Part shown: piece after piece, positions 8,419 through 25,437 of the stretch
Layout of the letters: each line of letters opens with the position of its first letter
Position numbering within the stretch: position 1 is the stretch's first letter
NCBI GenBank assembly: GCA_027344975.1
Contig: DAHWIP010000001.1
Coordinates: 1-32,294, forward strand
Direction of reading: 5' to 3'
DNA: 32,294 nt
From: Phycisphaerae bacterium
GTDB taxonomy: Bacteria > Planctomycetota > Phycisphaerae > WQYP01
Notes under the pieces: model-generated
Told to the model about the DNA's origin: nothing
The model's input: only the letters and a program-made list of their open reading frames with translations
Databases searched by the model: none
Made by a program: the position numbers and the translations under genes

Positions 8419-8504
8419 AAGACAACTCCTGAAAATTTGAGATTAACCCAGCCCAGCGTCCCACAGATTAAATCCATAAAGAGACGCGTGCCATCCGCTT
8501 CATA

Positions 8505-8520
8505 TGCAAAGGGTGTACCA
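8505..8520 (-). promoter_or_regulatory. Sigma-54 (-24/-12) promoter match, drives glycine-zipper gene
   Basis: The minus strand reads TGGTACACCCTTTGCA, with GG-N10-GC spacing as in the consensus TGGCAC-N5-TTGCW. It is intergenic, about 87 nt upstream of the GTG start at 8418. Confidence 0.6.
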
Positions 8521-8772
8521 CGCGACGAATATTGCCCTGTCGGCTGAGGACTTTTTGCGGGCTTAGGGAATAGACGCCCGATCCTACCTCCACAGCCTGA
8601 TGTCGATATTTTGACGCACATCAGTGTCGCGCCAGCTGCGGCTCACATCATCTGAACCGCCCTTAAACCCGCGATTTCTAAGCCTCAGCGCTCGATGATT
8701 CTTTATTCGCTAATTCCCGCCAGGCAATCCGAAATACTTACTGAAGTGAACCGACGCGGTCGAAATTACCTC

Positions 8773-9119
8773 AGATATTTTATCATCTATACGCCCGTTA
8801 TTTTTCCCGATGGGGAGGAGGAGGATCGGCACCAACTGGACGGCATTTAGGCCACGGTGGACAAATTGACGCGGGCGTTTTGTCCGACGAAGCCCATATT
8901 CTCCCTTCGATACGCACCACCACCGCGGAATTGTCAGCTATTTTCTGTACGGCACGGGGATTGCGTGAGAAAAGGTTCGGGTGGTGAAATGTCGTCCGAG
9001 CGCCGATTAATCCGCCCGGATTGCATACACACGGGAAGCATATATGTCCGATACAGTGCCGCAGCAGCTTGGCAATAATTCAACATTAACGGAATCATTT
9101 GAGCTCTACGAGCAGATCA
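8773..9119 (+). repeat. Copy A of a paralogous regulatory module (upstream blocks + sigma-54 promoter + 5' UTR + first ~25 codons)
   Basis: It aligns without net gaps to 20827..21175. Shared blocks are AGATATTTTAT, TGGACGGCA, A(T/A)TGACGCGGGC(G/A)TTTTG, ACGGCAC(G/A)GGGATTGC, GGTGGTG(A/C)AATGTCG and the ATATG start. Confidence 0.75.
8950..8965 (+). promoter_or_regulatory. Sigma-54 (-24/-12) promoter match, drives GGDEF gene
   Basis: CGGCACGGGGATTGCG with canonical GG-N10-GC spacing. It lies 79 nt upstream of ATG 9044 and is conserved in the paralogous copy at 21004..21019. Confidence 0.65.
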
Positions 9120-9982
9120 GAACACGCACAGAGGCTCGTGCCCGTGAAGTGTCGGCCATCAATGAGGCATTTAAGGATAAACTCAGGGAGTGCGACTCGC
9201 AGGAAGGCGTGCGTGAGGCGATCATCTGGGGCCGGCGCATTGACGATATGCTTCTCAAATGTCTCGATGATTTAAGTTTAGTTCAGACCGCCTTGCTGGC
9301 GGAAATAGTCAAACGCCGGACGCTGGAACGCAAATTGTCCCTCAGCGAAACTCTATGCGATAAACACCTGCAAAGGGCGTTGCATGACGACCTGACCGGG
9401 CTGCCCAATCGAGCGCTCTTCAAAGATCGGCTCCAGAAAGCCTGCGTACAGGCGAGGCGCCATGAACGGCGATTTGCGGTAATGCTTATTGACATTGATG
9501 CCTTTAAAAGTATTAACGATGTGCATGGCCATGACATGGGCGACAAAGTGCTGAATCTGGTCGGGTGGCGCCTCCAAGCTTCTCTGCGAGAGGAGGACAC
9601 TGTCGCCCGCGTCGGCGGAGATGAATTCCAATGCCTGCTAATGGAAGCCAAGGATGAGGCCGTCATTGCCAAGATCGCAAAATGCATGATCACCCGCGCT
9701 GCGGGTGCCGCCGGTCAGACGGGCTTGCGTGCAAAACTGAAACTGAGCATCGGCATCGCCCTTTACCCGCTGGCTGGAACGAGCCCCGACGCTCTGTGTC
9801 GGCATGCCGATGCCGCCATGTATGCGGCAAAGGCCGCCGGCACTGGTTATCAGTTCTGGAGCGATGTTGAGTCGCGCGAATCCTCGGGTTGGAAAGAGGC
9901 GCCGCGGTCCGCTGACACGGCCGAAGTCCGCAAGACGCTGCATATTTCCGGCGAATCGTCCGGCCGGGACGGCATTGGATGA
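9044..9982 (+). CDS. Diguanylate cyclase (GGDEF domain) with coiled-coil-like N-terminus
   Basis: 312-aa ORF with LTGLPNRALF, DIDAFKSINDVHGH and the active site GGDEF. An RxxD I-site (REED) lies 5 residues upstream of GGDEF. No recognisable sensor domain. Confidence 0.9.
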   Translation: MSDTVPQQLGNNSTLTESFELYEQIRTRTEARAREVSAINEAFKDKLRECDSQEGVREAIIWGRRIDDMLLKCLDDLSLVQTALLAEIVKRRTLERKLSLSETLCDKHLQRALHDDLTGLPNRALFKDRLQKACVQARRHERRFAVMLIDIDAFKSINDVHGHDMGDKVLNLVGWRLQASLREEDTVARVGGDEFQCLLMEAKDEAVIAKIAKCMITRAAGAAGQTGLRAKLKLSIGIALYPLAGTSPDALCRHADAAMYAAKAAGTGYQFWSDVESRESSGWKEAPRSADTAEVRKTLHISGESSGRDGIG

Positions 9983-9998
9983 CCTCGATGCAGCAGAG

Positions 9999-10697
9999 TT
10001 AACCCCTGCTGATTTTATTAGAATCAAGCGTAACCTGCCCATGTTGAGTCAAAGCGCATCCATCGCTGATGGACGCATCGGCCTGCATCGTAATGCCCGT
10101 AGATGCAAGAATATCACCCTCAAAGGTACTGTCCTGTCCCAATGTGGCCGAACCACCCACCAGCCACGTCACATCGCGCCTCGCCTCTGAGGCGGGCCCA
10201 CCACCGATCGTAATGATCGCCGAATTCGCTCCGGTTGTCAGCGTCGTTCCTATTTTGAAAATAAATCGCGCACGGGGATCACCCTGATTATTGAGCGTCA
10301 GGGTGCCGTTGAGTTCGGCGGCGGAGGAGAAATTATACACCCCCGGAAGGATGGTCAGTCCACCGAGGTTCTGGCCGCTCAGGTCATGTGTGGAGACCAT
10401 GGCCAATGCGATCCTGTAGGCTGTCATCAGATCTGATTGAGCCTTCTGCGTGGTAGCATCGTCACCGCGGATGCGGTGGGGAGAGCTCACCACACCGGGC
10501 GGAAAACCACTGACATCATCGCCCGGGCTGGTGCCTACATCACCGCCGTGTACGACGGTGGTGCCCGTGTTGACAACCGAACTGCCGGCGAGAACAGCAA
10601 AATCGCGGGCGCTCCCCATGGAGATCGAGGATTGGGTGCCTTGATCCGGCGTCACCACCGGCGGCACAACAAGTAGAACAATGGTCTTATTAATCAC
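9999..10697 (-). CDS. Ice-binding-like family protein (DUF3494)
   Basis: The track ORF is 9999..10739. GTG at 10697, preceded by a GGAAAAAGGGG Shine-Dalgarno-like purine stretch (complement of 10706..10716, 8 nt upstream), is a plausible start. Diagnostic DUF3494 blocks are present: DFAVLAGSSVVNTGTTVVHGGDVGTSPG, LTILPGVYNFSSAAELNGTLTL and WLVGGSATLG..STFEGDILA. There is no PEP-CTERM tail. Confidence 0.8.
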   Translation of the reverse strand: MINKTIVLLVVPPVVTPDQGTQSSISMGSARDFAVLAGSSVVNTGTTVVHGGDVGTSPGDDVSGFPPGVVSSPHRIRGDDATTQKAQSDLMTAYRIALAMVSTHDLSGQNLGGLTILPGVYNFSSAAELNGTLTLNNQGDPRARFIFKIGTTLTTGANSAIITIGGGPASEARRDVTWLVGGSATLGQDSTFEGDILASTGITMQADASISDGCALTQHGQVTLDSNKISRG

Positions 10698-11150
10698 GAT
10701 AAACACCCCTTTTTCCGGACAACATGGGCCGCCTGTCATGAGAAATGGGTCATCCGCGGAGGCCCGTAATAATTTGGCTCAGGCTGGTGGTTGCCCGGAC
10801 CTGAAGGGCATCGGAGCGATCCGTTTCGCGCACTGCCGACAGGGCAGGCACCATTAATCGCGCGACATGTCGTGCGATATCAATACGCGCACGATTCATA
10901 TTGTAGGCACCGATCCGGTGCCCGGATGGCTATAATTGACAATTATTGACTTTCGCAACGTGTGCTCTCGCCGGGACAAACCCGCTTCTGCTGCAAACGG
11001 CCCGACTCACAGGCACCCCAGGCTCTGCCCCAAAGGTGCCCGGCGCCATTATGGCCCGCACAAGACACAACGGCCCGGACAAACTGACAAAATAATATCG
11101 CTAAATCGGCGTCTATTACCGGAAAACGGCGAATGACAGAAATATCGGCC

Positions 11151-11166
11151 TGGCACGGCAATTGCA
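11151..11166 (+). promoter_or_regulatory. Sigma-54 (-24/-12) promoter, drives DUF3309 gene
   Basis: TGGCACGGCAATTGCA is a near-perfect match to TGGCACG-N4-TTGCA. It is intergenic, 121 nt upstream of ATG 11287. Confidence 0.75.
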
Positions 11167-11286
11167 ACTATAGCCATCGAGGCTTCCTGCTGAATTCAGC
11201 TCATGCTGCCTCAATTAACGCCGGTGCAACCATCGAAAAGCGGCCGCCCGGCCCGGAAGGATGCCGCTGATAAGGAGTTTAATACC

Positions 11287-11445
11287 ATGGGCCTGATCAT
11301 CATTGCACTACTGGTTATTCTGCTGCTCGCAAGTCTGCCTACTTGGGGGTACAGCAACAAGTGGGGTTACGGTCCGACCGGCGGGATGTTTTTCCTGCTG
11401 GTCATCGTCATCGTGCTGCTTGTCATGGGTGTGATTCCGCGGTAA
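11287..11445 (+). CDS. DUF3309 family small membrane protein
   Basis: ATG 11287 follows AAGGAG. The 52-aa product MGLIIIALLVILLLASLPTWGYSNKWGYGPTGGMFFLLVIVIVLLVMGVIPR has the WGYS..WGYGP signature of DUF3309 between two TM helices. Confidence 0.75.
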   Translation: MGLIIIALLVILLLASLPTWGYSNKWGYGPTGGMFFLLVIVIVLLVMGVIPR

Positions 11446-11602
11446 ATCAACCTGCCTCGCTTCCCTGAAAGCGGTTGCGGAAGTCTGGTTCACGCGGTGG
11501 CGGTCTCGCGTTCATAAGCCACCTTTGCGTTGACAGGATGGCGAACCCCGCATCAATATTATGTTCATAAAAGGCGATGGGTCATGTTCCCGGAATCCGC
11601 AC

Positions 11603-11986
11603 GTGAAAGTAGAACGATGTCACTTTTGGTCGGCCTCATCAATCGCTGTCGCAATGGCTTCGGTCGTCGCTGGGTGTTCGCAGTCCTATCATTCGGGAGC
11701 CAAGTCGCCGACGATCAGCATCCGCGCGACGCAAAAGAGCGTTGTGGAAGGCAGGACGGTTTGGATTCACGCCAGGACGGCAAACCTCACCAACATTATT
11801 CTCAGGTGGAAGGTAACGCCGTCTTCGGCCACGATCACTCCGGACCGTTCCCGGGGGAACCGATACGCCAAATTCGTAGCGGCACGACCGGGCGGATATG
11901 TCGTCGAAGCGTATGCCGAAACCAATCCGGGGCGATGGGTGCGAGGTCAGACAGATATTTTGGTTACCGGCATGAGCAGGAGATAA
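11603..11986 (+). CDS. Putative lipoprotein, unknown function
   Basis: The track ORF is 11561..11986. The in-frame GTG at 11603 gives (M)KVERCHFWSASSIAVAMASVVAGCSQ, a signal peptide plus lipobox (VAGC). The rest looks like a small beta-rich domain. Confidence 0.55.
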   Translation: MKVERCHFWSASSIAVAMASVVAGCSQSYHSGAKSPTISIRATQKSVVEGRTVWIHARTANLTNIILRWKVTPSSATITPDRSRGNRYAKFVAARPGGYVVEAYAETNPGRWVRGQTDILVTGMSRR

Positions 11987-12157
11987 CCAGACGCCGCCCT
12001 CGTTCGCCGCACCCATCAGCATCGACTGCCCCGCCCTCCCGGGTGGGACAGCCGACTGCGGCGGTCGATCACCCCAATTTAATGAGCTTTATGGTATTGC
12101 CTTGGACGTTCGTCCTTCTGCCGTATAAAGCTGTTGTTTTCTTCATGGAGTTGTCAA

Positions 12158-12553
12158 ATGAACCGCATTATCATTTCAAGTTTTCTGTCGGCAGTGACGG
12201 TCGGCATCGCGTCTTCCGGGGCCTTCGCGTCGCTCAAAACAGTGACCGTCAAGGGCCAGTTGCTGGACCTTAACTGTTATTCCGCTGCAGGACTCAAAGG
12301 CCGTTCCCACGGTCGAACCTGCGGAAAAAAATGCCTGCTGTCCGGCGCACCGGCCGGTATTCTGGTGCATGGCCACGTTTGGACCCTTGATGCAAACCCA
12401 AGACCTCTGGCACCTTATGTCGGCATGATCATCCGGGTAATGGGAAAATGTAACACCAGCGATCATGTGCTGATGCCCGTGCAGATAAAAGTAGACGAAC
12501 ACGGTACATGGAAGACCATTAAGCTCAAGCCGCTATTCAAACCCGTCCGCTAA
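12158..12553 (+). CDS. Small secreted Cys-containing protein, unknown function
   Basis: ATG 12158 lies 7 nt after GGAG and gives the signal peptide MNRIIISSFLSAVTVGIASSGAFA. The mature ~105 aa contain 4 Cys. No family was recognised. Confidence 0.55.
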   Translation: MNRIIISSFLSAVTVGIASSGAFASLKTVTVKGQLLDLNCYSAAGLKGRSHGRTCGKKCLLSGAPAGILVHGHVWTLDANPRPLAPYVGMIIRVMGKCNTSDHVLMPVQIKVDEHGTWKTIKLKPLFKPVR

Positions 12554-12721
12554 AGCGGCGTCGGTCGATTTCAGGCGACGCGCCGGCAAACAGCATTCGG
12601 CAAGCTGCCTACGGTCGATTTCTGCTCCAACAGCGCAGGAATCCACAAACCGGGGCAGCTTGCCCTTTTTTTCCTGGTGCCGCCCGTGCGAGAGAATATC
12701 GCAATTATGTGATATATCCAT
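12533..12721 (-). CDS. Possible 62-aa Cys/His-rich small protein (speculative)
   Basis: ATG 12721 is preceded by GGAGG. The product is MDISHNCDILSHGRHQEKKGKLPRFVDSCAVGAEIDRRQLAECCL... It overlaps the 3' end of the convergent gene by 21 nt. No family was recognised. Confidence 0.3.
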   Translation of the reverse strand: MDISHNCDILSHGRHQEKKGKLPRFVDSCAVGAEIDRRQLAECCLPARRLKSTDAALADGFE

Positions 12722-13037
12722 CCCGCCTCCGATTGGTGAAAGCAAAAACTCATGCCAAAGAATATTTTCCGTTATCTGAAGTGGCTCCCCGGCGGAGGTT
12801 TTCGACCCGTCGCGCATCTTCGTTGCCGCAGAGCACGGTGGAGCGTGTTGCAGGCCAGATTATTCACCAAGCACGCCAGCCCGCGAAAGATCAAGATTGC
12901 TTCATATGACAGAAACCCGTATACTCCAGATTATATCCGGCGTCAATTTATTGGTTGGGTTTTCACCCTGACCTCTGAATGGATGCATGGGTGTAATGTG
13001 TGGTGCCAACGGCGCCAAACGTTTAGGATACCTCAAC

Positions 13038-14519
13038 ATGATGAGCCCCGATCAATACGAGATTCTGGTAATCGAGGACAATCCAACACAGCGATCTGCC
13101 CTCGAGCAAGTTCTCACGGAGGCCGGATATAACGTCAAAACCACTAATTCGGTCGAGAAGGCGTTGAATTTTGTGCAGGAGGGGATTGACTGCGTGGTGG
13201 CCGGGGTGGTCTCGGGAGATATCTCCCGACTGGATATCGTCAAGCAATGGAAGAAACATTTTCCAGATACGCCCCTGCCGGTCATAAAGGAATCGCAGTC
13301 CGTCATGTCGCTTCTTGAAATGGTCAGCACGGGCCGGCTTGGCGACAAGGACGGAATTGAGACCATTACCGAGGCCAAACACCTTCTTCAAAAGCTCATG
13401 CAGTTGGTCCACGCCTGCCAACAAGATCAGAAGATAAAAGATATCGCCTTCCCCGCCGACGGCACCAGTGATGGTCTCATCGGTGCCACGCCGATCATGA
13501 AGAGCATTATGCAGAGGATACATCGGTCCAGTGCCGCCCAGAGCACCGTTTTGGTAACGGGTGAATCTGGAACCGGCAAGGATCTCGCGGCACGGGCCAT
13601 TCACCGACACTCGGCCCGAAAGGACGGCCCCTTCATCGCGATCAATTGTGCTGCGATGCCTGAAGCTTTGGTGGAAAGCGAACTCTTCGGTTACGACAAG
13701 GGTGCTTTTACCGGTGCCTTGGATAAACGGATCGGGAGATTCGAGGCGGCTCATAACGGAACCTTGTTTATTGATGAAATTGGAGATTGCGCCCTGCCGG
13801 TTCAGGCAAAGCTCCTGCGGATTCTGGAAAATCGCGTCGTGACGCCACTGGGCGGCCAACGTGAGGTCAAGGTCGATACCCGCGTGATTGTCGCCACGAG
13901 CCGCGACCTTCCCGCGATGGTCAACAGCCGCGAGTTCAGGGAGGATCTTTTTTACCGGCTGAACATTATCAACATTATCATGCCGCCGCTTCGAGAACGT
14001 GCAGAAGATATACCGTTGCTCGTGGCGGCATTTATTCACCGCATCAATGAACAGAATAATTGGGCCGTTGATTCCATTTCAGCCGACGCGCTCGATGCGC
14101 TGCAACACTACCCATGGCCGGGGAATATCCGGCAATTGCTCAATGTCATCGAGCAGATCATCGTCCTCGCCGACCGCGATAAGACCGTCATCAGCCTGGG
14201 CGATCTTCCGGAGGTCTTTCGTACCACCGGCCAGTCCCCGTCGGAATCGGTACACAGCATCCCGCCCGGCAGTGATCCGAAATTTTCGCATAGCGCTACA
14301 CCACCGCGTCACGATCGCCGTGCGACCGACGTTGACGGCCCGCTGCTGACATTGGATCAACTTGAGAAGAGAACCATTGAAAAGGCGATGTCGCGTTTCG
14401 GCAATAACAAAACCAAAGCGGCGCAAGCCATTGGAATCAGTGTGCGAACCCTGCAACGAAAACTCAGTGAGAGCACATCCCCGCCGTTGGTGTTGCTGCG
14501 CACGGAATCGAAAGCCTGA
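13038..14519 (+). CDS. Sigma-54-dependent transcriptional activator (NtrC family bEBP) with degenerate receiver domain
   Basis: The track ORF starts at 12987; ATG 13038 (MMSPDQYEILVIEDN) is likelier. The AAA+ core has Walker A GESGTGKD and the sigma-54 contact loop GAFTGA. The C-terminal Fis-type HTH reads NKTKAAQAIGISVRTLQRKL. The N-terminal REC-like fold has IDCVVAGVVSGD where DxxxxD is expected. Confidence 0.9.
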   Translation: MMSPDQYEILVIEDNPTQRSALEQVLTEAGYNVKTTNSVEKALNFVQEGIDCVVAGVVSGDISRLDIVKQWKKHFPDTPLPVIKESQSVMSLLEMVSTGRLGDKDGIETITEAKHLLQKLMQLVHACQQDQKIKDIAFPADGTSDGLIGATPIMKSIMQRIHRSSAAQSTVLVTGESGTGKDLAARAIHRHSARKDGPFIAINCAAMPEALVESELFGYDKGAFTGALDKRIGRFEAAHNGTLFIDEIGDCALPVQAKLLRILENRVVTPLGGQREVKVDTRVIVATSRDLPAMVNSREFREDLFYRLNIINIIMPPLRERAEDIPLLVAAFIHRINEQNNWAVDSISADALDALQHYPWPGNIRQLLNVIEQIIVLADRDKTVISLGDLPEVFRTTGQSPSESVHSIPPGSDPKFSHSATPPRHDRRATDVDGPLLTLDQLEKRTIEKAMSRFGNNKTKAAQAIGISVRTLQRKLSESTSPPLVLLRTESKA

Positions 14520-14818
14520 CGCCAGCGATGGCAAGCTTTTTCGAACCGGCTGCCTTGAGCAGCGACGGGGGAGCTTCTTTCTGAGAGACCACACCCATCA
14601 GGCATTATGTCCGGGGCAATTTGACCTGCCAGACGAATTGGCCACGTGCGGTTTCGTCATTGATCTGTAAATAGGGTTATTTCGGGCCAGGAGCCGATCG
14701 GCGGCCGACGAACCATAGGTAACGAATTCTGATAATCCACATGCTTTAGCGTGCAGCTATTGCCCCTAATCCGATTTAGCCCGGAGACGGCCGGGGAAAC
14801 TCCGGCGATTACCGGCGA

Positions 14819-14834
14819 TGGCACCAGTTTTGCA
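14819..14834 (+). promoter_or_regulatory. Sigma-54 (-24/-12) promoter, drives PEP-CTERM ice-binding-like gene
   Basis: TGGCACCAGTTTTGCA is a near-perfect consensus match. It is intergenic, 135 nt upstream of GTG 14969. Confidence 0.75.
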
Positions 14835-14968
14835 ATCCAAGTACATACGCAGGTCCGCGCGGGCGGGGGGCGGTGTCAACTACGCGTATAACGGACTTCT
14901 GGGCGGCCGACGATTTGGCTGTACTTTCCCGCCGTTTATCCAATTCCTTTTTGCAGGAGAATTTTGCC

Positions 14969-15778
14969 GTGAAGAATCAAGCACCAATCCTACTTGCCGC
15001 AATTGCGTTAGCGTTGCTCCCATTGGAGGCAAAAGCCGCAGTCGTGCTGGGCACATCCGGAACTTTTGCGGTACTGGCCGGATCTACCGTTACCAACACC
15101 GGAACCACCACCATCGGTGGCGGAAACGTGGGTGTGAGCCCGGGTACTTCTATTACAGGTCTTTCAACGATGACCATCGCGCCTCCATTCAGCGTCCACG
15201 TGGGGGATGCCGTGGCCGCCCAAGCGCAAACCGCACTGACCAGTGCCTACAACGCTGCGGCAGCGCTGACGAACGCCACGAATCTTTCGGGTCAGGATTT
15301 GGGTGGCCAGACACTCACACCGGGGGTGTACGCATTCTCCTCGTCGGCGGCGCTGTCCGCGGGGACGTTGACCCTCAATGACGAAGGCAATCCGAATGCA
15401 CAGTTTGTTTTTCAGATAGGTACCACACTTATTACCGGCAGCGGTACCGACATAAAAATGAGCAACGGCGGTCAGGATCCCAACATATTCTGGCAGGTCG
15501 GCAGTTCCGCAACGCTGGGTACCGGCAGCTTGTTTGAAGGACATATTCTTGCCCTCGACAGCATCACGCTGGATACCGGTGCCAATATCATCGACGGCAG
15601 TGCGCTGGCAAGTACCGGCGCGGTAACTCTCGATGGCAACGTCATCGACAATGCGGTACCCGAACCCAGCGCCTTGACACTCGCTATTCTGGGCTTCGGA
15701 TTGATCGGCCTCTCATTGACCACCCGTCGCCTGCGCGAGCATCCTCGGCAAGCCTCGTCTACCGGACTTCCGCGTTGA
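14969..15778 (+). CDS. Ice-binding-like family protein (DUF3494) with PEP-CTERM sorting signal
   Basis: The track ORF is 14873..15778. GTG 14969 lies 8 nt after AGGAGA and gives the signal peptide (M)KNQAPILLAAIALALLPLEAKA. DUF3494 blocks are present: TFAVLAGSTVTNTGTTTIGGGNVGVSPG, LTPGVYAFSSSAALSAGTLTL and FWQVGSSATLG. The C-terminus is VPEPSALTLAILGFGLIGLSLTTRRLRE plus 14 extra residues. Confidence 0.85.
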   Translation: MKNQAPILLAAIALALLPLEAKAAVVLGTSGTFAVLAGSTVTNTGTTTIGGGNVGVSPGTSITGLSTMTIAPPFSVHVGDAVAAQAQTALTSAYNAAAALTNATNLSGQDLGGQTLTPGVYAFSSSAALSAGTLTLNDEGNPNAQFVFQIGTTLITGSGTDIKMSNGGQDPNIFWQVGSSATLGTGSLFEGHILALDSITLDTGANIIDGSALASTGAVTLDGNVIDNAVPEPSALTLAILGFGLIGLSLTTRRLREHPRQASSTGLPR

Positions 15779-15874
15779 TGGTTGCCGATGATAAGCCGAT
15801 CTTTTTCTATGGCTGCCCACCAGCCTCCCTCGGCTGTTCTGATAGTCCAGTCGGCGGCGCTCCAGAGTTGCTCC

Positions 15875-15890
15875 AGGCGCCAGCTTTGCA
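15875..15890 (+). promoter_or_regulatory. Weaker sigma-54-like -24/-12 match upstream of SPFH gene
   Basis: AGGCGCCAGCTTTGCA has correct GG-N10-GC spacing and a good -12 TTTGCA, but a poorer -24 box. It lies about 207 nt upstream of ATG 16097. Confidence 0.35.
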
Positions 15891-16096
15891 CACGCCACTC
15901 CGAATCGGGTCGCGAACGATTTTGTCCCTGACGGCGCCTGCAAAGCGTGATGTCGCTGGGACGGCCCGTTAATGATTCCGAATGGTGCCATTTGTCCTGA
16001 TGCCCGCCCGCGACCGTAAGTAATCGTTATGAAGGATTTATCAAATGAAGTCAAACAATTCTTTCGCCACGTTGATTTTTTTTTGTTATTCTCGGC

Positions 16097-16966: not shown

Positions 16967-17219
16967 TTACCGGGTTCCAATGCTGAGAATCCATCCGGGC
17001 AACAGAAATGTCGCAAGCGACGCCTGCGGGACTCTGCACCATCGCCTGAAAGTGGGACGGATGCAATGCCCGCCCATCGGCAACTTTTCGTGGCCAGATG
17101 CGTATAAGCAACTATAATCGGCGGAATAGCTGAAGGTGACGTATCAGGGATCATCCCCTTAAGTTCAGCTCAGGCCGGCGGCGGAACTTCGCCGGATATC
17201 AGTGGTTAGGACATGCATC

Positions 17220-18572: not shown

Positions 18573-18649
18573 GCTCTCTCACGCCTGCAAATTTAGGATT
18601 GGCGGCGGGCCAGCGGGTGGTCGGCACGATGCAAGGGAATAGTGCATGG

Positions 18650-18688
18650 TTAAATAAAGAGGCCCGGCCGCTCTCTGTTCGGCCGGGC
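18650..18688 (-). terminator. Rho-independent terminator for the minus-strand PEP-CTERM gene pair
   Basis: A perfect 9-bp stem GCCCGGCCG (18662..18670) / CGGCCGGGC (18680..18688). On the minus strand it is followed by CTCTTTATTTAA. Confidence 0.5.
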
Positions 18689-18740
18689 GTATCCGAAAAC
18701 CTCACCGCGCGATCGCGTGGGTTGTTATTTTCGTTGGATT

Positions 18741-19538
18741 TCAGACCCGACGGCGCCACAGCAGAAGCGCTCCTGCCCCCGCCAAACCCATCAACCCCAT
18801 TGAAGCCGGCTCCGGGGTTGGGGTATTGCCGGCGATGGTATCGTTCAGGAACGTCATGGTGGCGGCTGATCCAGGATCAAGCGCCACGGTAAACTCCTCG
18901 GTCACCGAATAGGGCTGCGCGGGATAATTGGGCGAGGGAATGAAGTTTATAAGACCGGTGCTGCCGGACACCGTGTCAACCAACGTGCTGGAGGTGAGCG
19001 CAATGGTCTTGGTGCTGCTCGGATCGGCCATGCCGAACGCCGTCCCGGCGGGATCGACATACTGCGTAAAGCGAAGGCTGCCGCTCTGGCCCGGTTGGCC
19101 GAAGGACAAACTCGCAGAAAGGGGGCTAACCTGAATGGTGCTGTGGGGCCCAACCGGTGGCGTGGTAAACAGAGCCGTCACGTAGAAATTCAGCGTTGCG
19201 ACGGTGCTGCCGGTGTTAACCATGTTGTTAATACCGCCAAGCTGGAAAGTTTTTGTCAGCGTATTGCTGGCCACCTCATCCACGTTAACCTGGGCGCTGG
19301 AAACGCTCATGCGGCCGTACGCCGAGCTTGAGAACGTCATCGGGCCCGATTCACTCGCGGAGTTAACACCGCCTGTAACCGAGTCGTTACTTGAACTCTG
19401 CCCCTGAAAAAGGTAGAAGCCTTCCGAATAGCCGGACGACAGAGTTGGATAGGTCGACGCCGCCATAACAGCGGGTGCGACCATGCCGGCGGCCAGAAAG
19501 GATGCGATCTGGATTTTTATATGTGATGTCTTCATCAT
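18741..19538 (-). CDS. Ser/Thr-rich secreted protein with PEP-CTERM sorting signal
   Basis: The track ORF runs to 19571; ATGATG at 19538 gives the signal peptide MMKTSHIKIQIASFLAAGMVAPAVMA. The C-terminus is TPTPEPASMGLMGLAGAGALLLWRRRV. Confidence 0.8.
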   Translation of the reverse strand: MMKTSHIKIQIASFLAAGMVAPAVMAASTYPTLSSGYSEGFYLFQGQSSSNDSVTGGVNSASESGPMTFSSSAYGRMSVSSAQVNVDEVASNTLTKTFQLGGINNMVNTGSTVATLNFYVTALFTTPPVGPHSTIQVSPLSASLSFGQPGQSGSLRFTQYVDPAGTAFGMADPSSTKTIALTSSTLVDTVSGSTGLINFIPSPNYPAQPYSVTEEFTVALDPGSAATMTFLNDTIAGNTPTPEPASMGLMGLAGAGALLLWRRRV

Positions 19539-19631
19539 AACACTATCTTTCAATAAAAAAAGGATAAACACTTACTTTCATTCATCGGCGAGAGATGCCC
19601 GCCATTTACATTAACGCGAGAAAGCAGCCGA

Positions 19632-20471
19632 TCACGATTTGCGGCGGCGTACGAAAAACAATGGTACTACCCCGGCCATTGCGAGAGCGGAGGACGCGGG
19701 CTCAGGTGTGGCAATGCCAGTGGGCACCACGGTTGAAATGGTATTGTCATTGAGCATGTCGAAATTCGCCACTGCATTGGCAGAGAGCGTGAGGACAACC
19801 TTTGAATCTATCGTGAACAAATCACCCGGTGACAATACAAGGGTACTCGCAGACGCTTTTGCACCCACCGAAAACGGCGTCGAACTGGCGTTGTAGGTGC
19901 CTGAGGAATAGGAAATCTGGGCGGAGGAACCGTTTGAGGTGTCCGGCGTTGCCGTGGTGGTGAATACGAACGTGGCGGCACCCGCGCCAATTTCGCCGCC
20001 GAAGCTTTCCTGCGCGTTATACAACTCGCTGCTCAGCGATCCACTGGCGACGAAGCCGGTATCCCGAATGTCGATTGCCAAAGTCTGAGTCCTCCCGGTT
20101 GTATTCGTGATGTTGACCGCATTGGCGTTGATACTGTTGCCACCTGACAGTTTGCTGTAGATGCTTGACGCACCAGCGACATTCACCGTCACGCCATTGC
20201 TGCTCGCATTCTGTAACTGAAACGAGCTACCGGAGCTGAATATCTGCGGGTTACTCGATCCGATGGTAACCGTCAATTCAGGCAATGCTTGTACGGTGGC
20301 GGGAATTGCCGCCATCGCCGCGATGGCAACAAATGCGCCGGCCGTGATCATCTTCCTCGTCTGCCCTGATGCAAACATTGCAGATCGCCCCGGACTTCCG
20401 ACGGCGACATCATGGTTCGCATCGGGTCGCGACCTTCCTTTATTTTCGTCGATTTCCAAATGGTTCTTCAC
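19632..20471 (-). CDS. Ser/Thr-rich secreted protein with PEP-CTERM sorting signal
   Basis: The track ORF runs to 20747, but that would lie upstream of the predicted promoter. Candidate starts are GTG 20471 (7 nt after AGGAG), ATG 20378 and ATG 20351 (MITAGAFVAIAAMAAIPATVQA signal). The C-terminus is ATPEPASSALAMAGVVPLFFVRRRKS. Confidence 0.75.
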   Translation of the reverse strand: MKNHLEIDENKGRSRPDANHDVAVGSPGRSAMFASGQTRKMITAGAFVAIAAMAAIPATVQALPELTVTIGSSNPQIFSSGSSFQLQNASSNGVTVNVAGASSIYSKLSGGNSINANAVNITNTTGRTQTLAIDIRDTGFVASGSLSSELYNAQESFGGEIGAGAATFVFTTTATPDTSNGSSAQISYSSGTYNASSTPFSVGAKASASTLVLSPGDLFTIDSKVVLTLSANAVANFDMLNDNTISTVVPTGIATPEPASSALAMAGVVPLFFVRRRKS

Positions 20472-20557
20472 AACACTACTCCTGAAAACATGGTGTAAAC
20501 GTGGTCGTGCGCCCACGGATTTGATCCATAAAAAAACGCCGGACGCCACACCCTCTA

Positions 20558-20573
20558 TGCAATTGGGAGGCCA
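20558..20573 (-). promoter_or_regulatory. Sigma-54 (-24/-12) promoter match, drives PEP-CTERM gene pair
   Basis: The minus strand reads TGGCCTCCCAATTGCA with correct GG-N10-GC spacing and -12 AATTGCA. It is intergenic, upstream of all plausible starts of the 19632.. gene. Confidence 0.55.
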
Positions 20574-20826
20574 ATCGGTGAAGATATCGCAACCACCCGG
20601 GCCGGTTTGCTTGGCCAGCGAAATAAAATCCGCAGAATTCTGCAACAGGCCGGAGCCGGCGCTGTGACGATGGGTTACTCGGGGCAAACTACCCGCTAAA
20701 TCGCCATAAATGCCGATATATCGGTGTTCTACAGGGCTCAGCCACATATGGAACTTTGGCTTGTGACAACAGCCTGAGACGGCAGGTGCAGGCGCGATCG
20801 CGAAGCAACGCGATTGAAACTACCAG

Positions 20827-21175
20827 AGATATTTTATTATCGATACACCCGTCATTTGCTTTTAGGAGGAGGCGTGCTCTCGGCTCCTATTGGACGGCAC
20901 TTTTGCCGCTACGGCCAAAATGACGCGGGCATTTTGACTTAAGGAGAGCCCACTTTCGCGTCGGCATAGAGCGCCATGGCGAAAACGCGAGTACCCTCTT
21001 AAACGGCACAGGGATTGCACCAGCAGATACTCAGGTGGTGCAATGTCGCCTGAACGTCCGTTGAATCGCCCGAATGGTAAGGGCACAGGAAGTAAATATG
21101 GCTGATGCGATGCAGCGGTGGGGTATAGGCGGCAATTCCACATCATCGGAGATGGGCGAACACATAAGGAAGCTG
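20827..21175 (+). repeat. Copy B of the paralogous regulatory module (see 8773..9119)
   Basis: Same block order as copy A and identical distances. The first block lies 177 nt before the promoter and 271 nt before the ATG in both copies. Confidence 0.75.
21004..21019 (+). promoter_or_regulatory. Sigma-54 (-24/-12) promoter match (paralog of 8950..8965)
   Basis: CGGCACAGGGATTGCA with canonical spacing, 79 nt upstream of ATG 21098. Confidence 0.65.
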
Positions 21176-21346
21176 GCGGCGGCAGGTCATCCAGAAATTT
21201 GGTCGCGATTGATGGTCAATACCTTTACCACCACTTTTACGGTCGATGATCGTCCCATGTTGTTACGACAAGATTGCCGGAATGCCCGTATACCGCCGAA
21301 GTTCTCCACAAAACTGGCGTCAGTGGCTATTTTCGCATTCAAATGA
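21098..21346 (+). CDS. 82-aa ORF paralogous to the N-terminus of the GGDEF protein (small paralog or gene remnant)
   Basis: MADAMQRWGIGGNSTSSEMGEHIRKL... aligns with MSDTVPQQLGNNSTLTESFELYEQIR... of the 9044 gene. Later, EIWSRL...DDRPMLLRQDC aligns with IIWGRRIDDMLLKCLDD. No GGDEF domain follows. Coding status is uncertain. Confidence 0.3.
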   Translation: MADAMQRWGIGGNSTSSEMGEHIRKLAAAGHPEIWSRLMVNTFTTTFTVDDRPMLLRQDCRNARIPPKFSTKLASVAIFAFK

Positions 21347-21564
21347 CTGCCCGTAGATTATCTGTTGCGGGAGAAATGACTCTACTTGAACAATCGGTCG
21401 GAGAAATTTTATTTACCTCACCGGAGCCGAAAACGGCATTGGGGCAGCGATGGCGGCATTAAGCCTTCTTACGAATTCATCAGGCTGTTTACGGCGCGAA
21501 GCCATCCGGGCGGCACGGCGCCGGATTCATTTTTTGAATGTGGTGATTACTTGAGGGTGAATTA

Positions 21565-23256
21565 ATGAAAGGGGCGCCATTTATCCAGCCCAATGACCCA
21601 TCGGGGCGTAGGGCATTGAATTTTTCAGTACGACTCTGGTTCCTGATTATCGTTACCGGCATTGGCGCCGGATCAGGAGCATCATTGCTTATGGCATTAC
21701 TGGGGGCGGTGCAGCATTGGTGCTATTCCTACAGTAAGGGTGATTTTCAGCACGCGGCGGAGCTCGTGTCGCCTTGGCGGCATATCTGGATTATGGCGAC
21801 TGCGGGCCTGCTTGCGACCGGAGTGATCTGGTTCTTGAAGCATCACTGGCCCGGTAAGGACAGCGACATCCCGAAATCAATTTGGTTCAGGTCGGGGCAT
21901 CTGCCTTTCATTCGCACCATGATCGATGGGGCGCTGGCCATGACTATTGTGGGTATGGGAGCCTCGCTTGGCCGGGAAGGTGCACCGAAGCAGGTGGGCG
22001 CCGCCATTGCCGGCGTGCTTTCCGGATGGACAAAATTGGAACCTGCGGAGACCCGATTCTTAGTCGCCTGCGGTGCCGGTGCGGGTATGGGGGCTGTCTA
22101 TAATGTACCGCTTGGCGGAGCGCTGTTTACACTTGAGATACTGCTGGGAACCATGGCATTACCATTGATCCTGCCCGCGATTACCGCATCCTACGTGGCC
22201 ACCGCGGTTTCGTGGGTAACACTTCCAAATCGCGCCACCTATCGGGTGCCCCATTACCATTTTGTCGTGGGACAACTGCTCTGGGCGATGGTTTTCGGCC
22301 CTCTGGCTGGCATTGCGTCCGTATTATTCGTGCGATTGATTATTTACGCGGGTAGGCATAAGCCAAAAAGGGGCTGGTCCATACTGGCACCGCTTCCGGT
22401 GTTCACGTTACTGGGATGTGTGGCTATCGCATTTCCGCAATTGTTGGGTAACGGGAAAGATGTCACCGAATTGGCGTTTACGCATAAACTGGCCGTACCC
22501 CTGCTACTGGTGCTGATCTTCCTAAAACCACTGGCCACGTCAGGTTGCCTGGGCAGTGGGGCACCGGGCGGTCTTTTTACCCCGACCATTACCGTCGGAG
22601 CCGTGTTCGGAGGATTTTTCGGCCATCTATGGTCGCTGATTTGGCCGGGCGCAACGCCGGGAAGCTATGCCGTCATTGGGGCCGGTGCGGCATTGGCTGC
22701 AACCACGCAGGCCCCGCTCTCATCCATCGTTTTGCTGCTCGAGCTGACGCATCATACTCTGGGGATCTTGGTTCCGATTCTATCCGCCGTGGTCACCGCG
22801 ACCATAACGTCACGGTTGCTGGATCGTCGATCGCTCTACTCCGGGCCGATCAACGCGATTCGCCCGGCGATAGGAATAGCAAGATCAGCCCCGCCGATGT
22901 CATATCAAGCGGGCATCTGTTCGGACATTAATGTCATCTCGATATCTGCCAGTTACCAGGCAATTCTCCGGCGATTTTCCGGCTCGCTTGGCAGGCCAAC
23001 CATTCTGTACGTATTGGATGAAAATGGAGCGTTCGTCGGTCGTATCCGGCAGTCGGACCTGAACGCGTGTCGACCATTGGCCCGCGTTCTGAATATCGGT
23101 GCGGCCGCTGATATGGTGCACCCCGTGACATGCCTGCTTACGTCAATGCCCCTGCACGACGTCCAGCAGCTACTGGCTTGCGAGCCTGATGGAGAACTGC
23201 CCGTTGTCGATGCTGCCAGCGGCAACCTGTTCGGAGTGACGCGCCGAAAGGTATAA
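21565..23256 (+). CDS. ClC-family chloride channel / Cl-/H+ antiporter with C-terminal CBS pair
   Basis: 563-aa ORF with GREGAPKQVG (gating-Glu motif) and GSGAPGGLFTPTITVGA (GxFxP motif). It has many TM helices and a C-terminal ~130-aa CBS-like region (...ILYVLDENGAFVGRI..., ...ELPVVDAASGNLFGV...). Confidence 0.9.
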   Translation: MKGAPFIQPNDPSGRRALNFSVRLWFLIIVTGIGAGSGASLLMALLGAVQHWCYSYSKGDFQHAAELVSPWRHIWIMATAGLLATGVIWFLKHHWPGKDSDIPKSIWFRSGHLPFIRTMIDGALAMTIVGMGASLGREGAPKQVGAAIAGVLSGWTKLEPAETRFLVACGAGAGMGAVYNVPLGGALFTLEILLGTMALPLILPAITASYVATAVSWVTLPNRATYRVPHYHFVVGQLLWAMVFGPLAGIASVLFVRLIIYAGRHKPKRGWSILAPLPVFTLLGCVAIAFPQLLGNGKDVTELAFTHKLAVPLLLVLIFLKPLATSGCLGSGAPGGLFTPTITVGAVFGGFFGHLWSLIWPGATPGSYAVIGAGAALAATTQAPLSSIVLLLELTHHTLGILVPILSAVVTATITSRLLDRRSLYSGPINAIRPAIGIARSAPPMSYQAGICSDINVISISASYQAILRRFSGSLGRPTILYVLDENGAFVGRIRQSDLNACRPLARVLNIGAAADMVHPVTCLLTSMPLHDVQQLLACEPDGELPVVDAASGNLFGVTRRKV

Positions 23257-23590
23257 GGTGGTGTTCGGGGACATATTATTCCTGCCCAAGGGGCTTTTGG
23301 CGCGAATCAATCCGGAACTGGCACGTAAGCCACGCCGCCGGAAGACTCAAAGCCCCAGGCAGATCAAAAACCAACGGCTTGGGGATTCGCCGCGATTGAA
23401 GGCTAATAGTTTTATGACGGTGTCGGCGTCCGGACGAATGCGTCACGATGTGTCCTCCGCAAGGGGCAGTCTGTCGGGCGACCCCGACGAATTGTCATGG
23501 CAGGGCTGTTCGCAATAAGCCGGTGATGATTATCGCGGTGAATTCAGCCCATCGGCCACCTAATACAGACTTGGAAGAGGATAATATCTG

Positions 23591-23606
23591 CGGCACGGTA
23601 ATTGCA
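23591..23606 (+). promoter_or_regulatory. Sigma-54 (-24/-12) promoter match, drives hydrophilic disordered protein gene
   Basis: CGGCACGGTAATTGCA with canonical spacing and -12 AATTGCA, 107 nt upstream of ATG 23713. Confidence 0.65.
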
Positions 23607-23712
23607 TGGTATCTGGTTGTGTTCCGTTCCCAAAATGGTGGTGCGGCGTGAGCGTTCACTTATTCGCCATCTGCCGGGAAATGGACGGCCGTCTTTCCGT
23701 AAAGGTAACATT

Positions 23713-24075
23713 ATGAAAGAAGACAAGCGAAATTCCACGAAATCCAACGATCGCGATCAAAACTCCGATATGCGTGAGGAACCTCGCCAAGAGTCCGCTA
23801 AGCGCGACAATGAAGTTCCTAAACGCAACCGTGATAATCGCACCGATCGTGACGAATCGACTCAAGAACGGCAGGGCGAGCCGAAGCCGCAGCGCAATCC
23901 AATGAAAAAAGATTACGTACCTGACGAGTCCGACTCGGCTAAGAAACCCAGTGATGACCAATCAGGCTCCCAAGCTCCCGTACCGGGACATGGCGCCGAA
24001 TCACCGTTGATGAGTCTGGGGCAGCACGGAGGAGCTTATGACGACAAAAACCTCGATGATCCGGACGAATTCTGA
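23713..24075 (+). CDS. Highly charged, low-complexity (hydrophilin/LEA-like) intrinsically disordered protein
   Basis: The track ORF is 23602..24075; ATG 23713 lies downstream of the promoter match. The 120-aa product is dominated by D/E/K/R/N/S/Q (MKEDKRNSTKSNDRDQNSDMREEPRQESAKRDNEVPKRNRDNRTDRDESTQERQ...) and has no hydrophobic core. Confidence 0.55.
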   Translation: MKEDKRNSTKSNDRDQNSDMREEPRQESAKRDNEVPKRNRDNRTDRDESTQERQGEPKPQRNPMKKDYVPDESDSAKKPSDDQSGSQAPVPGHGAESPLMSLGQHGGAYDDKNLDDPDEF

Positions 24076-24251
24076 ACTGACAGCAATAGTTCTAAGGCAG
24101 ATTTCTCTCCCAGTGAAGTGATAGTACACCCGGTGGCCATGGGCGAATATCCCCAAGGTACTTGTTGGCAGCCGTTACCGCCACGTATCGGCAGAACGCA
24201 TCAAGTCAGTATCTGCCCGGGCGACCGGCCTTTCGAAGCGAGAAAGCGTCC

Positions 24252-24563
24252 ATGTTATACCAATTAAATCCGACCATTCCCATGCGATGTTCTCGTGGCG
24301 ATGGGTACGCCGTAGCTGTAATCGAATACAGCCAGGAGCACCACATACTCTGGGTGGTGGCACTTAACCCTTCAGGCGAAGTGTGGTGTCTGGCAAATTC
24401 GGAGATTAGCCTGCAGATCGATGGCAGCGTGCGGCATACATCTTTGCCGGAACAATATGCCGGGAGCCAGGGTCTGAGCATTGTGCGTCCGTCAAACGGG
24501 CGGCAGGTCAACGGCGACCGATTGATCGCCGGCCAAAGCGACGGCCAACAAACCGGTGCTTAG
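24252..24563 (+). CDS. Hypothetical protein (103 aa)
   Basis: The track ORF is 24162..24563; the ATG at 24252 gives MLYQLNPTIPMRCSRGDGYAVAVIEYSQEHHILWVVALNPSGEVWCLANSEI... It has globular-looking composition, but no family was recognised. Confidence 0.4.
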   Translation: MLYQLNPTIPMRCSRGDGYAVAVIEYSQEHHILWVVALNPSGEVWCLANSEISLQIDGSVRHTSLPEQYAGSQGLSIVRPSNGRQVNGDRLIAGQSDGQQTGA

Positions 24564-24704
24564 ATTTCCGCCTTGGCATCAACAGCCCTGCGGCGGGCCA
24601 CAGGGTGAAGCAGACACCACGTTCTGCGGTTATTTTCATAAAAAGCCACACCGAGGTGGCGGGAGTAACCTGGTCAAGGCCTGCCTTCGCGGACAACTTT
24701 CGGC

Positions 24705-24965
24705 TTATTCCGCCGAACGATCCACACTTCCGGCGTGATGATCGGTGGAAGTCGCCGGGCGTGGCGATGCCGCAGTCTGTGTATGTATTCCCACAGCTCT
24801 CGCTGCCTTATTCTTATCGGATTCCATTTTACCCGGGTGGACGGTCAACCGGGCTCCCACCTGATGAGAGCTCGTCGAGCCCGAAACGTTAAACCAACCA
24901 CGAAAGAATCCGACCACAAGCAGAACCGTGACTACGATTCCGACAAGTATTAGAAATGCTCGCAT
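24705..24965 (-). CDS. Small single-pass membrane protein
   Basis: 86-aa ORF with ATG 8 nt after AGGGG. The N-terminal TM helix is MRAFLILVGIVVTVLLVVGFF, followed by a hydrophilic tail. It is preceded by a sigma-54 promoter match. Confidence 0.6.
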   Translation of the reverse strand: MRAFLILVGIVVTVLLVVGFFRGWFNVSGSTSSHQVGARLTVHPGKMESDKNKAARAVGIHTQTAASPRPATSTDHHAGSVDRSAE

Positions 24966-25088
24966 GATATTACCCCTGGCCTTTCCGGCAATAAGACATT
25001 TTTACAATCTGCCCGGCAGTGCGCTGGTTGTTCCATTCGGGCCGGCACCGACAGGATAGCCAACTGACGTTCGCTACAATAAATGAGT

Positions 25089-25104
25089 AGCAATTCACGA
25101 GCCA
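25089..25104 (-). promoter_or_regulatory. Sigma-54 (-24/-12) promoter match, drives small membrane protein gene
   Basis: The minus strand reads TGGCTCGTGAATTGCT with canonical spacing. It is intergenic, about 124 nt upstream of ATG 24965. Confidence 0.6.
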
Positions 25105-25437
25105 ATGGCGGATTTCTCAGTCTTTCAGTTTTCACGCCAGCACAGGGTATTTTCTATTGATGGATCGACACTTTGGCACGGACAATTTTTCCTGATGCAG
25201 ACCATCTGCCATGGTTCTATCCTGCCGGCTGCGATATCTCTGGCGATATAACAGTTCATCGGCTGCCGGTTCGCTCTCAGGGGCGCAGCGGCGAGTCGCG
25301 GCGGCAACCGATCCGGCGAAAGGTGTTGGAACGTTCGGCAATCAACACTCGCGATTACGGAGACCTGGCAACGTTATTCCCGGAACAATGACCGATCAAC
25401 CGGCTCTTTGCCAGGTGCGCTTCATAATCCGTCTGCG

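Follow-up and report, generated by a model that had tools for sequence, protein, structure and literature searches.

A putative local sigma-54 regulon of small stress, surface and cyclic di-GMP genes around a pseudo-receiver enhancer-binding protein in a Phycisphaerae bacterium

In the Klebsiella nif cluster, about 24 kb of DNA carry some eight sigma-54 promoters, all of them preceded by activator sites of their own, together with the gene of their bacterial enhancer-binding protein (bEBP), NifA. NifA has a GAF domain, recognizes the upstream activating sequence TGT-N10-ACA and is itself under the control of an NtrC/sigma-54 cascade. For the PEP-CTERM genes of Proteobacteria, single-gene units with large intergenic regions were described, in which a spacer of about 63 nt separates a PrsR site (sometimes repeated) from a sigma-54 box, and the start codon follows about 70 nt further on; the same study pointed to a gap in knowledge on what regulates such genes beyond the Proteobacteria (Haft et al. 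2006, PMC1569441). Sigma-54 regulons outside the Proteobacteria and Firmicutes have mostly been predicted only at COG level. This was also the level of a 2025 survey with position-specific scoring matrices that included the Phycisphaerae, one of the classes with at least 4 rpoN-bearing genomes, and that gave 0 occurrences of PEP-CTERM (PMC12316311). Literature searches retrieved no experimentally defined bEBP regulon from a planctomycete. Here we describe the analysis of a stretch of 32,294 nt from a Phycisphaerae bacterium (contig DAHWIP010000001.1, assembly GCA_027344975.1), referred to below as the window, in whose positions all coordinates are given unless another contig is named. The results point, with a probability of about 0.7, to a local regulon in which sigma-54 controls small stress, surface and cyclic di-GMP (c-di-GMP) genes and which would be driven by the bEBP encoded at 13038-14519.

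In an initial annotation of this DNA, nine 16-mers had been proposed as sigma-54 promoters of the -24/-12 type. All of them (9/9) were found at their coordinates and on their strands, in intergenic DNA and facing the adjacent gene. Eight of the nine, located in a 17-kb stretch, are credible as predicted sigma-54 promoters, while two pairs among the sites stem from one duplication. The site at 15875, assigned to an SPFH gene, was rejected: it scores below 8 bits and is changed to GG-N11-GC by a 1-nt insertion in the closest genomic relative of the activator (88% identity), contig JBMFVY010000024 of a Phycisphaerae metagenome-assembled genome (L001). With the gene starts corrected against orthologues, the distance to the start codon, originally given as 79-207 nt, is 77-134 nt at the eight retained sites and 206 nt at 15875. 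Compared with the consensus TGGCAC-N5-TTGCW, six sites contain at most one mismatch and two sites contain two, with GG and GC spaced by exactly 10 nt.

Five of the eight boxes are located on the plus strand. These are CGGCACGGGGATTGCG (8950..8965; 14.9 bits, identical in L001) in front of a GGDEF gene, TGGCACGGCAATTGCA (11151..11166; a perfect consensus, 22.3 bits) in front of an operon for DUF3309, a lipoprotein-like and a secreted protein, TGGCACCAGTTTTGCA (14819..14834; also a perfect consensus, 13.6 bits) in front of an ice-binding-like PEP-CTERM gene, CGGCACAGGGATTGCA (21004..21019; 16.8 bits, a paralogue of the 8950 box) in front of an 82-aa open reading frame (ORF) and possibly serving the ClC gene as well, and CGGCACGGTAATTGCA (23591..23606; 21.0 bits) in front of the gene of a disordered, hydrophilin-like protein. 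On the minus strand, TGGTACACCCTTTGCA (8505..8520; 17.3 bits, identical in L001) faces a glycine-zipper gene and TGGCTCGTGAATTGCT (25089..25104; 15.0 bits) the gene of an 86-aa membrane protein. The third box on this strand, the weaker TGGCCTCCCAATTGCA (20558..20573; 10.5 bits), is directed towards the PEP-CTERM gene 19632-20480 and probably also 18741-19571. This predicted promoter holds up despite its score, being identical in the 88% relative and paralogous to the 8505 box.

The stringent form of the consensus is enriched in the window. TGGCAC-N5-TTGCW with at most one mismatch was found 6 times against 1.28 expected (0/100 shuffles reach 6). No enrichment was observed over the whole window for the bare GG-N10-GC geometry (471 vs 465 expected) or for the consensus with up to two mismatches (19 vs 18 expected). 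A 22-nt sigma-54 matrix, built from 21 boxes in related contigs only and so independent of the window, gave 8 window matches of at least 12 bits, compared to 0.89 in shuffles (maximum 3 in 100). Seven of these are proposed sites (8505, 8950, 11151, 14819, 21004, 23591 and 25089), and all seven (7/7) fall within the non-coding 22% of the window and face the next gene. The remaining match, 1990(-), lies inside a glycosyltransferase gene and has no GC dinucleotide. The matrix scan found no box of at least 8 bits for the ice-binding gene 9999-10697 (minus strand) or for a glycine-rich PEP-CTERM gene at 5411/5516. Sigma-70-like promoters and terminators showed no enrichment in the island.

The prediction that these sites behave like real sigma-54 promoters is supported by relatives with an activator of 57-88% identity, in which the boxes are conserved at orthologous positions. 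Synteny between L001 and the window spans 2967-25299, apart from 20937-23534, which L001 lacks; seven of the boxes are present there, the 21004 segment being absent. Across these seven boxes, 0 changes were counted in 77 consensus positions and 5 in 35 spacer positions, and the probability of all five landing in spacers is about 0.003. The differences in the 11151, 14819, 23591 and 25089 boxes are confined to the spacer, and the 20558 box is identical at 16/16 positions within variable flanks. Just past the end of synteny, L001 carries two extra sigma-54-like boxes, CGGCAGAGATATTGCA at L001 19735-19750 (-) and TGGCATGGGAGTTGCT at L001 19929-19944 (+), and the island may continue there with different genes beyond the breakpoint.

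A protein search yielded a graded series of activator orthologues, of which seven contigs at 57-65% identity (L081-L087) were compared. The neighbourhood is kept in five of these seven (L081-L085, Phycisphaerae) and comprises a 180-aa glycine-zipper gene divergent from a GGDEF gene, an ice-binding-like gene, the activator gene, and DUF3309 followed by one small envelope-protein gene. A Dps/ferritin-like gene was also found in 4/5 of these neighbourhoods and DUF892 in 2/5. Boxes of the form TGGTAY/TGGCAT...TTTGCA stand 82-87 nt from the start of the glycine-zipper orthologues in L081 and L083-L085. For the GGDEF orthologues of L081, L083 and L085 the box reads CGGCACrG.AATTGCW, at 64-74 nt (103 nt in L082), and for the DUF3309 orthologues of L083-L085 it reads YGGCAC...AATTGCW, at 119-121 nt (63 nt in L082, 120 nt in the window). 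The DUF892 genes of relatives have the box TGGCACC.CATTTGCT at 126-132 nt, the ice-binding-like genes of L082 and L083 have boxes at 159-211 nt, and L083_89aa, a homologue of the 86-aa membrane protein, has one 68 nt upstream. The intergenic DNA of the relatives is otherwise heavily diverged (mean column identity 45-55%), and the maintenance of the boxes at matching distances in such DNA is the strongest evidence that they are functional. Directly observed are the motifs with their enrichment and conservation, the linkage of the genes and the features of the domains.

Alignment of seven divergent glycine-zipper/GGDEF intergenic regions (IGRs) revealed, besides both boxes, a single block of sharp conservation, CGGACAAAATGnCGCGGACAAATTGTCCG, which can be read as a 17-bp palindrome, cCGGrCAwwwTGyCCGg, mostly in two copies offset by 14 bp. 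This candidate activator-binding sequence (CCGGACAAATTGTCCGG) was found about 63-220 nt upstream of six sigma-54 boxes, and the palindrome is likely the binding site of the activator. The pattern GGNCAWWWTGNCC with at most one mismatch gave 12 window matches where 3.4 would be expected (0/100 shuffles reach 12). A position weight matrix (PWM) trained solely on sites from L082-L085 gave 8 window matches of at least 12 bits compared to 0.57 in shuffles, the best of them upstream of sigma-54 boxes, and 0.61 matches per 32 kb in unrelated bEBP loci (1.33 Mb). The intergenic palindrome matches are all located upstream of sigma-54 boxes. The pairing of box and palindrome recurs in every relative. 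It was also detected near two further members of the activator clade, at L086 2597-2791 (GH39/glycoamylase operon; L086 and L085 are the same genome) and at L087 9289-9393 (78-aa gene), which indicates that the regulon or its paralogues extend beyond the island. These observations support a single regulator to which the conserved upstream palindrome would tie most of the promoters. In its geometry, with about 63 nt between site and box and about 80-130 nt from box to gene start, the arrangement corresponds to a classical bEBP enhancer.

With 17.9 and 16.5, the tandem candidate sites at 14598..14628 (14598 / 14612), about 190-220 nt upstream of the 14819 box, have the highest PWM scores of the window; both are conserved in L001, where they score 21.6 and 16.4. 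The candidate site ACGGACAATTTTTCCTG at 25178..25194 (PWM 14.9), which was not used in defining the motif, is located 73 nt upstream of the 25104 box. Upstream of the 11151 box, at 92 nt, the candidate site GGCGCCATTATGGCCCG (11042..11058; PWM 14.0) lies within a block that is 100% conserved in L001, and its equivalents in L082-L085 are found about 59-106 nt upstream of the DUF3309 boxes. Two tandem pairs that align with each other are situated 62 nt upstream of their boxes, namely 20911..20941 (20911 / 20925; PWM 13.6 / 10.1) for the 21004 box and 8857..8887 (8857 / 8871; PWM 10.9 / 11.4) for the 8950 box. The latter pair lies between the divergent promoters, in the block conserved in 7/7 aligned divergent IGRs. 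A weak candidate site at 23483..23499 (PWM 9.5) precedes the 23591 box by 91 nt. Two other palindromes have no box nearby: 24448-24464 (13.8 bits) lies in an unsupported 133-aa ORF (24162-24563) between the genes of the hydrophilin and the small membrane protein, and 27714-27730 (14.7 bits) is inside a phosphoesterase gene.

The gene at 13038..14519 (plus strand) had been annotated as an NtrC-family activator with a GAFTGA loop, which was confirmed by Pfam and by alignments. It encodes a bEBP with a degenerate receiver (weak Response_reg match), an AAA+ sigma-54 interaction domain (Sigma54_activat PF00158, 4.7e-67), AAA_lid_14 and a C-terminal HTH_8 (PF02954, 3.3e-13); the GAFTGA and Walker motifs in the alignments identify it as an NtrC-type bEBP. 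The receiver is not of the phosphorylatable kind. Its phospho-acceptor Asp is replaced by Gly, and G, H or Q occupies this position across the island-linked clade (57-65% identity). At the conserved Thr position, most members of this clade have Glu, the closest relatives Lys or Asn, and one Gly. Outgroup bEBPs (43-46% identity), which are not linked to island genes, retain Asp, Thr and Lys, and one of them adjoins a HAMP histidine kinase. A family search found no histidine kinase among the window ORFs. Based on the loss of the acceptor Asp, the activity of the protein is probably set otherwise than by a cognate histidine kinase. The same loss argues against a canonical two-component input, and the activity may instead depend on, for instance, a partner protein, a ligand or the abundance of the activator itself.

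Among the NCBIfam equivalogs, the activator stays below every cut-off, including those of PrsR, NtrC, ZraR, NifA and PspF. A metagenome scan with its N-terminal domain found no relatives, and a look-up of the exact protein returned no record. A terminator-like hairpin at 12652-12666 separates the DUF3309 operon from the activator gene, and no sigma-54 box was found upstream of this gene by the matrix scan. The activator is therefore probably not autoregulated and is probably expressed independently of its own regulon. In L084, L085 and L086 (at about 9075-9771), a conserved protein of 222-223 aa without a Pfam domain is encoded directly upstream of the activator gene and in the same orientation. 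It is absent from the window, and L083 has a sigma-70-family gene at that position. This protein could be a partner that controls the pseudo-receiver.

From these features we infer the use of the boxes by sigma-54, the binding of the palindrome by the activator and a physiological role for the targets. In the regulon proposed here, eight transcription units would each possess their own -24/-12 promoter. The organism may well possess rpoN, for which indirect support comes from the abundance of GAFTGA bEBPs in the clade, seen in the protein search, and from the listing of the Phycisphaerae among the rpoN-bearing classes (PMC12316311). The sigma-54 holoenzyme would sit on the eight boxes as closed complexes, and the genes would remain silent until an enhancer-binding protein acts. 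The pseudo-receiver activator, most likely the product of 13038-14519, would assemble on the palindromes via HTH_8 and open these complexes; in each of the two divergent IGRs, a single pair of sites would probably act on both promoters. Small membrane or stress proteins, secreted ice-binding-like and PEP-CTERM surface proteins, and c-di-GMP synthesis would in this way be switched on together.

Several points weigh against this proposal. It rests, for this organism, as a whole on sequence inference. The palindrome pattern was derived in part from window sites (the PWM test used relatives only), and the 20558 box is a weak match to the consensus. The leftward promoters 8505 and 20558 are about 340 nt away from the nearest site pair. 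High-scoring palindromes inside coding sequence (27714, 24448 and 31476) imply that the motif alone is not fully specific. Near the 23591 promoter there is only a weak palindrome; in L001, strong palindromes are found about 80 nt upstream of the hydrophilin promoter instead. In relatives, the clade is also represented by paralogous bEBPs (at least two, P0020 and P0021, in one genome), so that other bEBPs could drive some of the promoters. The paralogues and the 23591 promoter would equally suit an explanation in which the boxes are real and are driven by one or more other activators, the palindrome is the operator of a different protein (a repressor or nucleoid protein) and the bEBP is linked only by synteny. 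We consider it unlikely, since the linkage between the pseudo-receiver clade and these target families has survived rearrangement in six genomes, the palindrome stands at the classical enhancer distance and often in tandem, the HTH_8 helix is nearly invariant across the clade, and outgroup bEBPs do not have this linkage.

Two further explanations have far less in their favour. The cluster might be an artefact, produced by the duplication of an intergenic module together with a few random matches in intergenic DNA, which is richer in AT. Two paralogous IGRs indeed contain four of the nine sites, which go back to two and so are not independent, and the loose patterns are not enriched. Such an origin is nevertheless very improbable, as the other four boxes share no flanking similarity, the boxes were kept in relatives though the intergenic DNA diverged, the substitutions in L001 avoid consensus positions, and the boxes and the palindrome are conserved blocks within the duplicated IGRs. 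Membership in the proteobacterial PrsK/PrsR/PrsT system for the regulation of PEP-CTERM genes, a lead suggested by the initial annotation, would agree with three PEP-CTERM proteins among the targets and with the architecture, in which, as in the earlier study (PMC1569441), an upstream site lies about 63 nt from the sigma-54 box and the box about 70-130 nt from the start. It retains next to no probability and can be regarded as refuted. The activator reaches 315.1 bits with the PrsR model TIGR02915, for which the cut-off is 502.6, the acceptor Asp is missing from its receiver, the window encodes neither a kinase nor a TPR partner, and TTTACA does not occur in the 130 nt that precede each of the eight boxes. 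In addition, neither the targets common to most relatives (glycine-zipper, GGDEF, DUF3309, ice-binding-like) nor DUF892, a target in two of them, belong to the PEP-CTERM proteins, and PrsKRT was found only in Proteobacteria (PMC1569441).

The gene annotations proposed at the outset were essentially right according to Pfam and NCBIfam. The glycine-zipper protein (7876..8418, minus strand; 180 aa) shows a weak Gly-zipper_Omp match and has orthologues of about 60% identity in L081 and L083-L085. Divergent from it, 9044..9982 (plus strand) encodes a diguanylate cyclase without a recognised sensor domain (GGDEF, 6.7e-46), with orthologues in L081-L083 and L085. Its translation shows an intact GGDEF motif and an intact RxxD site, and transcription is probably the main control on the activity of this enzyme. 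The operon at 11287..12553 (plus strand) consists of DUF3309 (11287-11445; Pfam DUF3309), a lipoprotein-like ORF (11603-11986) and a secreted ORF (12158-12553), all three of which have orthologues in relatives. The ice-binding-like protein (14969..15778, plus strand; Ice_binding, 4.5e-58) carries a PEP-CTERM anchor. Two PEP-CTERM proteins are encoded at 18741..20480 (minus strand), of which 18741-19571 is above the Pfam PEP-CTERM cut-off (27.5 bits) and 19632-20480 below it (17.7 vs 20.7 bits). The 82-aa ORF and the ClC channel gene occupy 21098..23256 (plus strand; Voltage_CLC, 4.9e-77), with co-transcription of ClC being only possible. The small ORF was considered as a truncated copy of the GGDEF gene and this was rejected, there being no BLASTP support and a DNA alignment limited to the first few codons. 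The hydrophilin-like protein (23713..24075, plus strand) is highly charged and disordered in its translation and has no family match. The 86-aa membrane protein (24705..24965, minus strand), identified from its translation, is 31% identical to L083_89aa.

Part of the island can be traced to duplication. IGR 8419-9043 and IGR 20481-21097 (IGR_B) are paralogous from end to end and are 67-71% identical in the parts that BLAST can align. Both boxes, both 5' untranslated regions (UTRs), the palindrome pair and the first codons of both flanking genes are common to the two regions, with boxes and palindrome preserved best of all. The first 26 residues of the PEP-CTERM protein 19632-20480 also resemble the N-terminus of the glycine-zipper protein. 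Together, these similarities indicate that the island owes part of its growth to a complete bidirectional promoter-enhancer module that was copied and placed ahead of new genes. The segment missing from L001 begins immediately past the IGR_B palindromes and ends about 55 nt short of the hydrophilin box, so the predicted IGR_B enhancer would there directly serve the hydrophilin promoter. Just downstream of ClC, a 110-bp copy (23277-23386), 78% identical, was observed of the 3' end (25439-25548) of an MFS sugar-transporter gene (25438-26841, minus strand). The segment from the hydrophilin to the small membrane protein is thereby bracketed by direct repeats, and this, together with the 20937-23534 indel relative to L001, points to a recent rearrangement of the right half of the island.

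Conserved elements were also seen in the leaders of these transcription units. In the minus-strand 5' UTRs at 8430-8500 and 20490-20555, the glycine-zipper leader contains the element CCCAC.GGA...AATCCATGAAG (plus strand), which is kept in all relatives. It includes a small palindrome, GGAT-N3-ATCC, partly like the enhancer half-site, and might act as a downstream site for a protein or as a hairpin in the RNA. The GGDEF 5' UTR has a G-rich block resembling GGTGGGGGGA at 8975-9040 and 21028-21095, about 20-30 nt past the -12 element and present in all relatives. A leader ORF in this UTR (MSSERRLIRPD / MSPERPLNRPN, with apparently synonymous changes between the paralogous IGRs) was rejected, as its ATG is ATA in L001. 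An Rfam scan of the whole window with E up to 1 gave no RNA family, and no tRNAs were found in the window.

Two other ORFs to the left of the island were recorded. In the unusual 592-aa ORF at 2789-4567 (minus strand), a Clp_N repeat at the N-terminus is joined to a C-terminal cytochrome P450 domain, which aligns with no more than the last ~200 positions of the P450 model; this may be a fusion or a mis-merged ORF. At 5411-7588 (plus strand), an extremely glycine-rich protein of 725 aa is encoded, with GGxGG repeats, a local GC content of 68% and a PEP-CTERM-like C-terminus (PEPADG...LLPRRRRT). It has no family match and no sigma-54 box upstream, and a weak palindrome match lies at 5270-5286.

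The locus represents a compact, conserved and testable putative regulon with a pseudo-receiver activator clade, a 17-bp candidate enhancer and eight predicted promoters. The predicted co-regulation of DUF3309, glycine-zipper, hydrophilin-like and ice-binding-like/PEP-CTERM proteins, small proteins that are poorly understood, hints at a common role for them in envelope remodelling or stress survival. A wider programme can be put forward tentatively: a clade of Phycisphaerae bEBPs deficient in receiver phosphorylation might run a conserved sigma-54 programme through its own palindromic enhancer. This would be the planctomycete equivalent of a regulon for general stress or dormancy, in which c-di-GMP forms a second tier of output and possibly feeds back on the activator. 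The targets of such a programme, which is itself doubtful, could conceivably comprise glycine-zipper, DUF3309 and DUF892 proteins, probably a Dps-like ferritin, hydrophilin, secreted ice-binding-like/PEP-CTERM proteins and the diguanylate cyclase. In it, sigma-54 would perhaps take the role played elsewhere by an RpoS-, SigB- or EcfG-type sigma factor, which we offer as a speculative possibility.

When the locus is set beside described bEBP systems, some features are shared with each of them. As in the PspF/psp and ZraR regulons, the activator adjoins divergent or local small envelope or stress genes under sigma-54 promoters. In contrast to these, PspA, PspB, PspC and ZraP homologues are lacking, the units are many more and the activator is below the PspF and ZraR cut-offs. 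With FleQ and VpsR, c-di-GMP-responsive bEBPs whose N-terminal domains are non-phosphorylated, it shares a degenerate or atypical N-terminal domain, a palindromic, AT-centred operator and, through the diguanylate cyclase among its conserved targets, a link to c-di-GMP; the AAA+ similarity to FleQ is strong (9.8e-74). Flagellar or Pel/Psl-type targets are not present, and in a pairwise alignment with FleQ (8p53), 2/3 of the visible c-di-GMP-contact positions differ (LFRS to tsdg, RN to RA). An input through c-di-GMP as in FleQ is attractive given the conserved cyclase target, but it is not supported, because these contact positions differ.

The initial annotation had concluded that no system had been described in which almost all units of a local island possess a -24/-12 promoter of their own. 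This was overstated, the nif cluster being such a system. The likeness to nif covers a compact, bEBP-centred island, about eight promoters and divergent promoter pairs. It does not extend to TGT-N10-ACA, which is missing within 130 nt upstream of the boxes, to the GAF domain, to the activator score, which is below the TIGR01817 cut-off, or to the targets, which in nif are nitrogenase genes. The same architecture was also described for the PrsKRT regulon (PMC1569441), with which the locus has in common single-gene units, the layout of activator site, spacer and box, an NtrC-type activator with a Fis-family helix-turn-helix, and PEP-CTERM targets. It differs in an activator that is no PrsR equivalog, has no functional phospho-acceptor and has no adjacent kinase or TPR partner, and in an upstream motif that is a different palindrome from the 17-nt PrsKRT motif ending in TTTACA. 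Its core targets are small stress and membrane proteins and a diguanylate cyclase, and its phylum is Planctomycetota. The locus fills the gap noted by Haft et al. on the regulators of PEP-CTERM genes outside the Proteobacteria (PMC1569441). The kind of system is already known and its mechanism is ordinary textbook sigma-54 control; new here are the phylum, the non-PrsR pseudo-receiver activator subfamily, the enhancer sequence and the target set.

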